The notes: generated by a model from the letters alone, not told the origin. 64,000 nt of DNA from Candidatus Megaera endosymbiont of Nemacystus decipiens (GCA_030036605.1 DAOTRE010000004.1:146123-210122); one strand, 5' to 3'; shown: positions 25,973 to 27,204, counted from the first letter of the stretch. Numbers and translations: made by a program.

Positions 25973-26956
25973 ATGAAAATTAATATAGGAAATATAGAAC
26001 TCTCAAGCCCAGTTGTGCTTGCACCCATGTCTGGAGTAACAGATCTTCCGTATCGTAGGTTGGTAAAAAAATTTGGAGCTGGATTAGTCGTTTCAGAAAT
26101 GGTTGCTAGCCGTGCAATGATAGCTCATTCTCGTCAATCACTACAAAAGTGTGCAATTGAAACAGATGAGAATGATGCAACTAAAGCTTGTGTTCAGCTT
26201 GCTGGTTGTGATCCGGATGTTATTGCAGAATCAGCAAAGATAAACGAAGAAATGGGAGCTAAAATTATTGATCTTAATTTTGGTTGCCCTGCTAAAAAAG
26301 TTGTAGGTGGTTTTGCTGGATCAGCCTTAATGAAAGATTTAAAACTAGCAAAAGCTATTTTAGAAAAAACAGTTAAGGCAGTAAAAATACCTGTAACTTT
26401 AAAGATGCGTATGGGTTGGGATGACAATTCGAAAAATGCAGTAGAGCTTGCGCAAATAGCTGAGAATGAAGGAGTGCAGTTGATAACTGTTCATGGTAGG
26501 ACTAGATGTCAATTTTATACTGGGAAAGCGGATTGGAAATTCATTTCCAAAGTTAAAGATGTGGTAAAAATTCCTGTAATTGCCAATGGTGATATAAAAT
26601 GCATAAAGACAGCTTTATTGGCGCTTGAAGAGTCAAAAGCTAATGGTATAATGATAGGCAGGGGTTGTTACGGCAAACCTTGGCTTATTAATCAGGTAGC
26701 ACATTATTTACTTTATAAACAAGAACTTCCAGATCCATCAGTTCAGCAGCAATTAGATATTGTACTTGAACATTACAACGCAATGCTGGATTATTACGGA
26801 GAAGAAGTTGGTTTGAAATTAGCAAGAAAGCATGTTGCATGGTATAGTTCGGGTATGCCAAGCTCAGGAGAATTTCGAGCGCGAATCAACCAGCTTACAA
26901 ATGCAAAAGAAGTAACAGACCAAATTAAAGAATTTTATAACTCAATAATAGTATGA
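25973..26956 (+). CDS. dusB: tRNA-dihydrouridine synthase B (NifR3 family)
   Basis: LAPMSGVTDLPYR, QLAGCDP, IDLNFGCPAKKV, TVHGRTR, ANGDI, GIMIGRG. Start set to ATG 25973 (MKINIG). Confidence 0.96.
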   Translation: MKINIGNIELSSPVVLAPMSGVTDLPYRRLVKKFGAGLVVSEMVASRAMIAHSRQSLQKCAIETDENDATKACVQLAGCDPDVIAESAKINEEMGAKIIDLNFGCPAKKVVGGFAGSALMKDLKLAKAILEKTVKAVKIPVTLKMRMGWDDNSKNAVELAQIAENEGVQLITVHGRTRCQFYTGKADWKFISKVKDVVKIPVIANGDIKCIKTALLALEESKANGIMIGRGCYGKPWLINQVAHYLLYKQELPDPSVQQQLDIVLEHYNAMLDYYGEEVGLKLARKHVAWYSSGMPSSGEFRARINQLTNAKEVTDQIKEFYNSIIV

Positions 26957-27204
26957 ACGATAAAGGAGACACCTTATTAAGGGCATTGGAAAAAAACCTA
27001 GATACATTTTTTAAGATGCATTCTAAAGATGCTCCAGAGTCTGGTCTGCATACAAGGTTCATGGAAGAAGTCGAAAGAGTGCTAATAAAAAAAACACTAG
27101 CTTACTCAGATAATGTGCAGCTTAAAGCATCAAATATTTTGGGTATTAATCGCAATACTTTGCGTAAAAAAATTCAGAAATTAAAAATCAAAGTTGATAA
27201 GTAA
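26953..27204 (+). CDS. Stand-alone Fis-type helix-turn-helix protein (resembles the NtrC C-terminal domain)
   Basis: EEVERVLIKKTL...Q-x-KASNILGINRNTLRKKIQKL HTH_8 motif; ATGA overlap with the dusB stop codon. Confidence 0.88.
   Translation: MNDKGDTLLRALEKNLDTFFKMHSKDAPESGLHTRFMEEVERVLIKKTLAYSDNVQLKASNILGINRNTLRKKIQKLKIKVDK

Follow-up and report, generated by a model that had tools for sequence, protein, structure and literature searches.

We analysed a stretch of 64,000 nucleotides (hereafter the window, all coordinates being those of this whole stretch) from Candidatus Megaera endosymbiont of Nemacystus decipiens (GCA_030036605.1, DAOTRE010000004.1:146123-210122), in which dusB is followed by a small gene predicted to encode a stand-alone DNA-binding protein of the kind found in Fis and in the C-terminal tail of NtrC. 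(L- and P-numbers below designate loci and proteins of this analysis.) The dusB gene, specifying tRNA dihydrouridine synthase B, occupies positions 25973 to 26956 of the plus strand and encodes 327 amino acids from an ATG at 25973, the mechanically called open reading frame (ORF) beginning at a TTG at 25898. The protein matches Pfam Dus (E=1.4e-98) and exceeds the cutoff of TIGR00737 (423.9 bits, cutoff 293.3), the alignment to the latter starting at residue 5. An earlier note on this DNA had reported an ATGA overlap between dusB and an ORF of 83 codons, and both the ORF call and direct reading of the sequence agree. In particular, the junction reads agtATGAacg, with the ATG of the small gene at 26953 and the TGA of dusB at 26954-26956, so that the two genes share positions 26953 to 26956 of the plus strand; this overlap suggests that translation of the small gene may be coupled to that of dusB. 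The small ORF is intact (26953-27204, plus strand; 83 amino acids), and its product matches HTH_8 (PF02954) with 47.8 bits against a gathering cutoff of 22 (E=1.2e-12), residues 37-77 covering model positions 2-42 of 42. The best relatives of both DusB and the small protein belong to metagenome-assembled genomes (MAGs) of Rickettsiaceae and to Candidatus Megaera, as expected from the origin in Rickettsiales that had been proposed for this DNA. (An exact-match look-up of the window protein returned no record.)

The small protein had been thought to consist of the helix-turn-helix module only. The predicted structure does not agree with this description; AlphaFold2, run on an alignment of 15 sequences, returned a model with a pLDDT of 88 and four helices (residues 3-23, 32-51, 56-63 and 67-76), that is, a whole four-helix domain in which two long helices precede a helix-turn-helix. 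When this model was compared with the PDB by Foldseek, the best 31 matches were all Fis chains from Escherichia coli or Pseudomonas aeruginosa (TM 0.6-0.7 over 69-73 columns), and the DNA-binding domains of NtrC4 and NtrC1 ranked next. A profile of the family likewise matched Fis of P. aeruginosa (8.9e-21) and of E. coli (3.8e-19), with the alignment beginning at Fis residue 21. The helix-turn-helix (residues 56-76, QLKASNILGINRNTLRKKIQK; 27118-27180, plus strand), which the invariance of residues I62-I74 in 15 relatives and the match to Fis mark as the predicted DNA-contacting part, aligns to Fis residues 74-94 (GINRGTLRKKLKK). Residues Q74, N84, R85, T87, R89, K90 and K91 of Fis contact DNA in Fis-DNA structures, and the aligned residue of the small protein is identical in every case. 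The small protein is thus predicted by modelling to be a complete DNA-binding domain of the Fis/NtrC type that lacks the N-terminal arm of Fis.

Several features of the gene indicate that it is maintained. Relatives of 79-83 amino acids, 68-98% identical and conserved in start and length, were found in Rickettsiaceae, and relatives of 86-146 amino acids in other alphaproteobacteria, all of them with HTH_8; counted across Rickettsiaceae as a whole, the orthologues measure 79-86 amino acids. Pairwise ratios of non-synonymous to synonymous substitution (dN/dS; Nei-Gojobori method, pairs with unsaturated dS of 0.3-0.8) were 0.009 for L012-L013, 0.032 for the window and L089, 0.052 for L009-L011, 0.053 for L010-L011 and 0.070 for L009-L010, which is comparable to the ratios of 0.05-0.07 obtained for the adjacent dusB in three Megaira-type pairs. 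Moreover, residues I62-I74 (ILGINRNTLRKKI) are invariant in the 15-sequence alignment. The shortness of the ORF and the reductive genome in which it lies would suit a functionless, decaying piece of ntrC, but the low dN/dS (equal to that of dusB), the retention of start, length and junction across many species, the invariant recognition helix and the confidently predicted fold together make such a remnant extremely improbable. We therefore reject the pseudogene reading because of the low dN/dS and the invariance of I62-I74, and concur with the earlier note that the gene is not merely debris. An exhaustive profile search with the family returned 2684 representatives at E<=1e-10, so the family is large; the best 150 of these 2684 divide into 96 short and 32 intermediate-length proteins and 22 enhancer-binding proteins (EBPs) that are full-length or receiver-less. 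The family is old and widespread, occurring in Rickettsiaceae, other Rickettsiales, Holosporales-like bacteria and other alphaproteobacteria, and is not specific to this genome. (Two of its members, P0201 of 205 amino acids and P0214 of 186 amino acids, carry two tandem Fis-like modules per chain and are possibly single-chain pseudo-dimers.)

The chromosomal position of the gene was compared across relatives by scanning a single genome of each species for the family pattern, retaining the best 80 of 590 matches, and labelling the ORFs of these 80 loci by BLASTP against DusB, NtrB, NtrC, NtrY, NtrX and Fis references. The order dusB-ntrB-ntrC-ntrY-ntrX is found in at least 24 alphaproteobacterial loci, and dusB-ntrB-ntrC in nine delta-type loci. 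Where HTH_8 is encoded by a stand-alone gene (39 non-redundant loci), dusB lies directly upstream in 32, ntrY directly downstream in 25, and both neighbours are present in 20; the small gene therefore occupies the ntrB-ntrC slot. Loci with both neighbours come from Rickettsiaceae and Megaera (L007, L008, L009-L013 and L016), from other Rickettsiales MAGs (L003 and L022), and from Holosporales-like and other alphaproteobacteria (L026, L035, L042, L044, L049, L054, L060, L064, L066 and L081). The 4-nucleotide overlap with dusB seen in the window recurs in L001, L003, L089 and L092. Of note, the dusB/ntrB junction is itself ATGA in 9 of the 18 canonical clusters inspected; since ATGA is usual at this junction, the tight coupling to dusB looks like an ancestral trait of the cluster. 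The small ORF opens with nine bases (26953-26961, ATGAACGAT) that also open ntrB in L069 (3785-3793), where the junction with dusB is the same ATGA, and this match, over a very short stretch, is a hint that the start of ntrB was fused in frame to the tail of ntrC.

Forms that may be intermediates were found as well. L032 encodes, directly after dusB and with no ntrB, a 354-amino-acid protein (5149-6213) with Sigma54_activat, AAA_lid_14 and HTH_8 but no receiver; L021 encodes a similar receiver-less protein of the NtrC type (350 amino acids, 5203-6255), and other receiver-less forms of 337-365 amino acids, such as P0222, occur among the representatives. (We considered whether the N-terminal extension of the long stand-alone proteins corresponds to the lid domain of L032, and set this aside because the alignment upstream of helix A is too weak to count.)

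A number of further observations were made at these loci. In L089, which carries a 98%-identical orthologue, an IS630-type transposase (HTH_Tnp_IS630, DDE_3; 1323-2185) stands in place of nuoG after the small gene, indicating a recent rearrangement at this junction. In L003, from one of the Rickettsiales MAGs in which the small gene lies between dusB and ntrY, the position of ntrX is taken by an ORF (8580-10208) of 542 amino acids with zero Pfam matches. NtrY is 605-614 amino acids long in the Rickettsiaceae loci (L007-L013 and L016), compared with about 710-890 in other alphaproteobacteria, and part of the sensor thus appears to have been lost. Finally, the GAFTGA/GSFTGA motif is missing from 15 of the 39 EBPs at the NtrC position (L019-L086) and from all 48 NtrX proteins.

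The association with ntrY raises the possibility that the small protein is a dedicated partner of NtrY-NtrX, acting for example on former NtrC sites or modulating the nitrogen or redox targets of NtrX, rather than a general nucleoid protein in the manner of Fis. Consistent with this, the 25 stand-alone loci with ntrY directly downstream often have gaps of 0-50 nucleotides or overlaps, and all 48 NtrX proteins lack GAFTGA, which implies that NtrX works without sigma-54. The gene is nevertheless kept where ntrYX is not adjacent (the window, L001 and L014), and because NtrX tails are only 13-16% identical to it, shared binding sites are unlikely. On balance we consider a dedicated role of this kind rather unlikely.

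Sequence characters within the domain were scored by counting alignment columns in 109 distinct sequences of stand-alone proteins and EBP C-terminal tails. (Counts of loop length by regular expression proved unreliable and were replaced.) One extra residue in the loop between helices A and B is present in all 42 alphaproteobacterial stand-alone proteins and in all 27 alphaproteobacterial NtrC tails, and the motif P-x2-G-x3-R/K accompanies it in 21 of 21 stand-alone proteins of the Rickettsiales subset and in 20 of the 27 tails. Both characters are missing from gammaproteobacterial Fis (0/5 for each), from the Fis-type protein of L076 (0/1), from beta-type Fis (the P0032 group, 0/3), from Nitrospina stand-alone proteins (0/3) and from the NtrC tail of E. 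coli (0/1). The extra residue without the motif is found in both receiver-less forms (2/2 and 0/2), in NtrX tails (11/11 and 0/11) and in a minority of delta NtrC tails (2/11 and 0/11). The window protein carries the alphaproteobacterial loop and motif (...SKDAPESGLHTR...), the loop being residues P28-R35 (PESGLHTR; 27034-27057, plus strand) with the extra residue just N-terminal to it. Overall identities follow the same trend: the window protein is 46% identical to the alphaproteobacterial NtrC tail of L027 (79 amino acids, ungapped, 66.6 bits) versus 34% identical to E. coli Fis (58 amino acids, 38.9 bits), as the earlier note had anticipated, and the Rickettsiaceae proteins average 38% identity to alphaproteobacterial NtrC tails, 34% to delta NtrC, 28% to gammaproteobacterial Fis and 13% to NtrX tails when the nine residues of the search pattern are excluded, the values for NtrC tails being biased upward because these tails came from the best 80 of 590 matches to the small protein itself. 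The loop insertion and the motif are free of this selection bias.

We built two trees, one of the tails (neighbour joining, 300 bootstraps, 73 columns; only shallow clades were used) and one of DusB (321 columns). In the tail tree, gammaproteobacterial Fis forms a clade at 100% with no alphaproteobacterial stand-alone protein inside it, NtrX tails form a separate clade at 100%, and an 87% clade unites the receiver-less protein of L032 and the stand-alone proteins of the long type. In the DusB tree, E. coli and L076 are split from all other DusB at 100%, Rickettsiaceae DusB forms its own clade at 100%, and DusB proteins linked to a stand-alone gene fall in at least four separate clades at 100%, one of which unites L032 with L038, L042 and L061. 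The separateness of these clades hints, with weak support between them (26-59%), that truncation may have taken place more than once. Note that the best 120 of 8000 matches in the DusB homologue search were all from Megaira-like Rickettsiaceae, with Rickettsia, Orientia and Anaplasmataceae not among them.

These results bear on horizontal transfer, in which a beta- or gammaproteobacterial dusB-fis pair would have replaced the native dusB-ntrBC. The order of NCBIfam scores favours such a transfer, as two Fis models, NF002517 (48.5 bits; the best-scoring model) and the Fis equivalog NF001659 (41.4 bits), rank slightly above the ntrC model TIGR01818 (37.9 bits). All of these scores are far under their cutoffs, which are 122 for NF002517, 99 for NF001659 and 558.6 for membership of NtrC, and only positions 398-463 of the 463 in TIGR01818 are matched; for comparison, P0032 scores 119.7 with NF002517 and E. 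coli Fis 180.9 with NF001659. Transfer would also fit the beta-type Fis P0032, which is likewise joined to dusB by a 4-nucleotide overlap, and is compatible with the lack of support at depth in the tail tree. Several observations argue the other way, however. Nesting within gammaproteobacterial Fis, which had been named beforehand as the outcome that would refute an independent origin, was not seen, given the pure Fis clade at 100%, and the topology of the DusB tree speaks against import of a beta- or gammaproteobacterial pair. Moreover, the loop insertion and motif are those of alphaproteobacterial NtrC and unlike those of Fis, and the small gene adjoins ntrY-ntrX in relatives whereas beta- and gammaproteobacterial fis loci are without ntrY-ntrX. 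In precomputed annotations, PF02954 is assigned to P0001 (98% identical) and to each of the 74 relatives, and PF27465, the N-terminal arm region, to none of them (P0033 also has PF06322), whereas the gammaproteobacterial Fis proteins listed have PF27465 in all cases and PF02954 in nearly all. Taken together, these findings make transfer of a dusB-fis pair very unlikely.

We consider it likely, from gene order and sequence signatures, that the small gene is instead the free C-terminal domain of an alphaproteobacterial NtrC, formed by deletion of ntrB and of the receiver and AAA+ parts of ntrC, and that it encodes a constitutive DNA-binding protein resembling Fis, produced as a free protein from the dusB operon. 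An ancestor with dusB-ntrB-ntrC-ntrY-ntrX would have undergone the deletion, which would have left the ntrC tail directly behind dusB with the tight ATGA-type junction of dusB and ntrB retained. In the product, the two long helices A and B would form the dimer interface, and the invariant GINRNTLRKK helix would mediate DNA binding and probably bending, to judge from the fold and the conserved residues. Like Fis, the protein may then regulate constitutively or associate with the nucleoid, and its level would be tied to transcription and translation of dusB. Having neither a receiver nor an AAA+ domain, it would need no phosphorylation, ATP or sigma-54 for its action. The N-terminal arm of Fis is needed for invertase stimulation, and because the small protein lacks that arm, invertase stimulation is not expected of it.

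The derivation from NtrC by loss of ntrB and of the receiver and AAA+ domains, which the earlier note had put forward, is supported by the 20 loci flanked by dusB and ntrY, by the loop and motif signature, and by the receiver-less intermediates. The same note had suggested an independent origin of a Fis-like protein in this genome; the independence is upheld by the signatures and by DusB, but the event is not peculiar to this genome, the family being old and widespread. Note that independence from Fis rests on the signature characters, DusB and gene order, and not on the tail tree. Several points, in addition to the upward bias of the identities, weigh against a derivation from NtrC. Deep nodes of the tail tree have about 0% support, so that the stand-alone proteins are neither joined to alphaproteobacterial NtrC nor split from delta-type tails. 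In the window, the gene downstream is not ntrY but nuoG, the first of nuoG-N, and in the window, L001 and L014 alike dusB lies upstream of the small gene with ntrYX not adjacent; because ntrY is not next, the slot argument applies to the window only by homology with its relatives. A tblastn search with 76 NtrB and NtrC queries found no credible relic of ntrB or of the 5' part of ntrC between dusB and the small gene. (A 40-amino-acid match in L025 was rejected as such a relic because it lies inside an unrelated 603-amino-acid ORF, and a 244-amino-acid alignment in L012 was judged spurious because it continues into the reading frame of dusB, with a gain of only about 9 bits.) Finally, no RNA run containing the locus was found for this organism. 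The sequencing runs containing DNA of the locus are algal and marine metagenomes.

We also entertained the idea of a single origin shared with Fis, in which one ancient truncation in alphaproteobacteria produced the gene from which beta- and gammaproteobacterial Fis descended, so that the two operons would be homologous and not convergent. The proposal of Morett and Bork (1998, pmid 9738943, as cited in PMC7482072 and PMC7166090) that Fis goes back to NtrC through horizontal transfer lends this idea some support. Linkage to dusB and the 4-nucleotide overlap are common to both groups, and the deep branches of the tail tree are too poorly supported to separate them. The donor of Fis in the proposal of Morett and Bork is said to have been alphaproteobacterial. 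Against a single origin, proteins of the Fis type have neither the alphaproteobacterial loop residue nor the motif, and the DusB proteins of E. coli and L076 nest in no DusB clade linked to a stand-alone gene. Furthermore, the distribution of stand-alone-linked DusB over at least four separate clades at 100%, one of them with a receiver-less intermediate, suggests repeated events. A single origin therefore seems improbable to us. We regard as a similarly long shot the bolder proposal that Fis originated through the dusB-linked free NtrC tail of alphaproteobacteria as its missing intermediate, the truncation having taken place in an alphaproteobacterium and the finished two-gene dusB-fis unit having then moved to the ancestor of beta- and gammaproteobacteria. 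A weaker form would, if true, have the same truncation occurring at least 3-4 times in host-associated alphaproteobacteria, making the reduction of ntrBC to a bare tail a predictable kind of regulatory reduction.

The remainder of the window consists of ordinary housekeeping genes of a genome of the Rickettsiaceae type. Upstream of the locus are greA, dnaG, rpoD, truA, an autotransporter gene, ssb, murA, pccAB, gltX and lon, and none of rpoN, ntrB, ntrC, ntrY and ntrX was found within the 64 kb. To our knowledge, the only sigma factors of Rickettsia are RpoD and RpoH. RNase P RNA (Rfam RF00010, 292 bits, full length) is encoded divergently just upstream of dusB (25317-25732, minus strand), which leaves only about 240 nucleotides for a dusB promoter. 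A scan for promoters was uninformative, with 9 promoter-like sites against 8.8 expected, and a search for a terminator after the small gene found none. The autotransporter gene (6643-11421, plus strand) encodes 1592 amino acids; apart from the autotransporter beta-domain at its C-terminus the product has no Pfam match, and it is probably a Sca-like surface protein. An ORF of 276 amino acids (23412-24242, minus strand) contains about five internal repeats with W(N/D)LxE(I/L)L and has no Pfam match.

Fis is a textbook nucleoid protein that is usually seen as a speciality of beta- and gammaproteobacteria, and its proposed birth from NtrC has rested so far on sequence similarity and linkage to dusB. 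At the loci described here the same kind of event would be visible in place, with a small gene at the position of ntrB-ntrC and with dusB and ntrY-ntrX as flanks in many relatives. The receiver-less forms of one lineage would complete a natural series leading from a signal-dependent activator down to a DNA-binding protein that is constitutive. In a search of a limited literature, no account of a free-standing Fis-like gene at the ntrBC position of alphaproteobacteria was found, and current annotation of these genes is inconsistent (hypothetical, Fis, GlnG or HTH domain protein). The gene would also give Rickettsiaceae and Holosporales-like symbionts, whose regulators are very few, one more protein with a probable nucleoid or regulatory role.

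Compared with gammaproteobacterial Fis, which is encoded in a dusB-fis operon, the window protein is likewise small and encoded directly after dusB, is predicted to have the same four-helix fold with a C-terminal helix-turn-helix, and has a nearly identical recognition helix (GINRNTLRKK, versus GINRGTLRKK in Fis). It differs in having 83 amino acids instead of 98, in lacking the arm region (hence the start of the profile alignment at Fis residue 21), in its loop between helices A and B, which is one residue longer and bears the motif of alphaproteobacterial NtrC, and in having relatives that adjoin ntrY-ntrX. Beta-type Fis (NF002517 / PRK01905, the P0032 group) resembles it in length (about 80 amino acids), in having no long N-terminal arm and in the 4-nucleotide overlap with dusB, whereas the short loop of that group, the absence of the alphaproteobacterial motif and an identity of 31% (search pattern excluded) set it apart. 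The C-terminal domain of NtrX shares the Pfam family HTH_8 and comes from a gene of the same cluster, but it is only 13-17% identical and forms its separate clade at 100%; judging from these sequences, NtrX is not the source of the small protein. With the C-terminal domain of alphaproteobacterial NtrC, finally, the small protein has the loop length and motif in common and, in relatives, the same chromosomal slot, although it is a free product of 83 amino acids without receiver, AAA+ domain or cognate NtrB. By descent, then, it is best described as the C-terminal domain of an alphaproteobacterial NtrC set free, and alphaproteobacteria appear to have made a Fis-like protein of their own, separately from that of E. 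coli.

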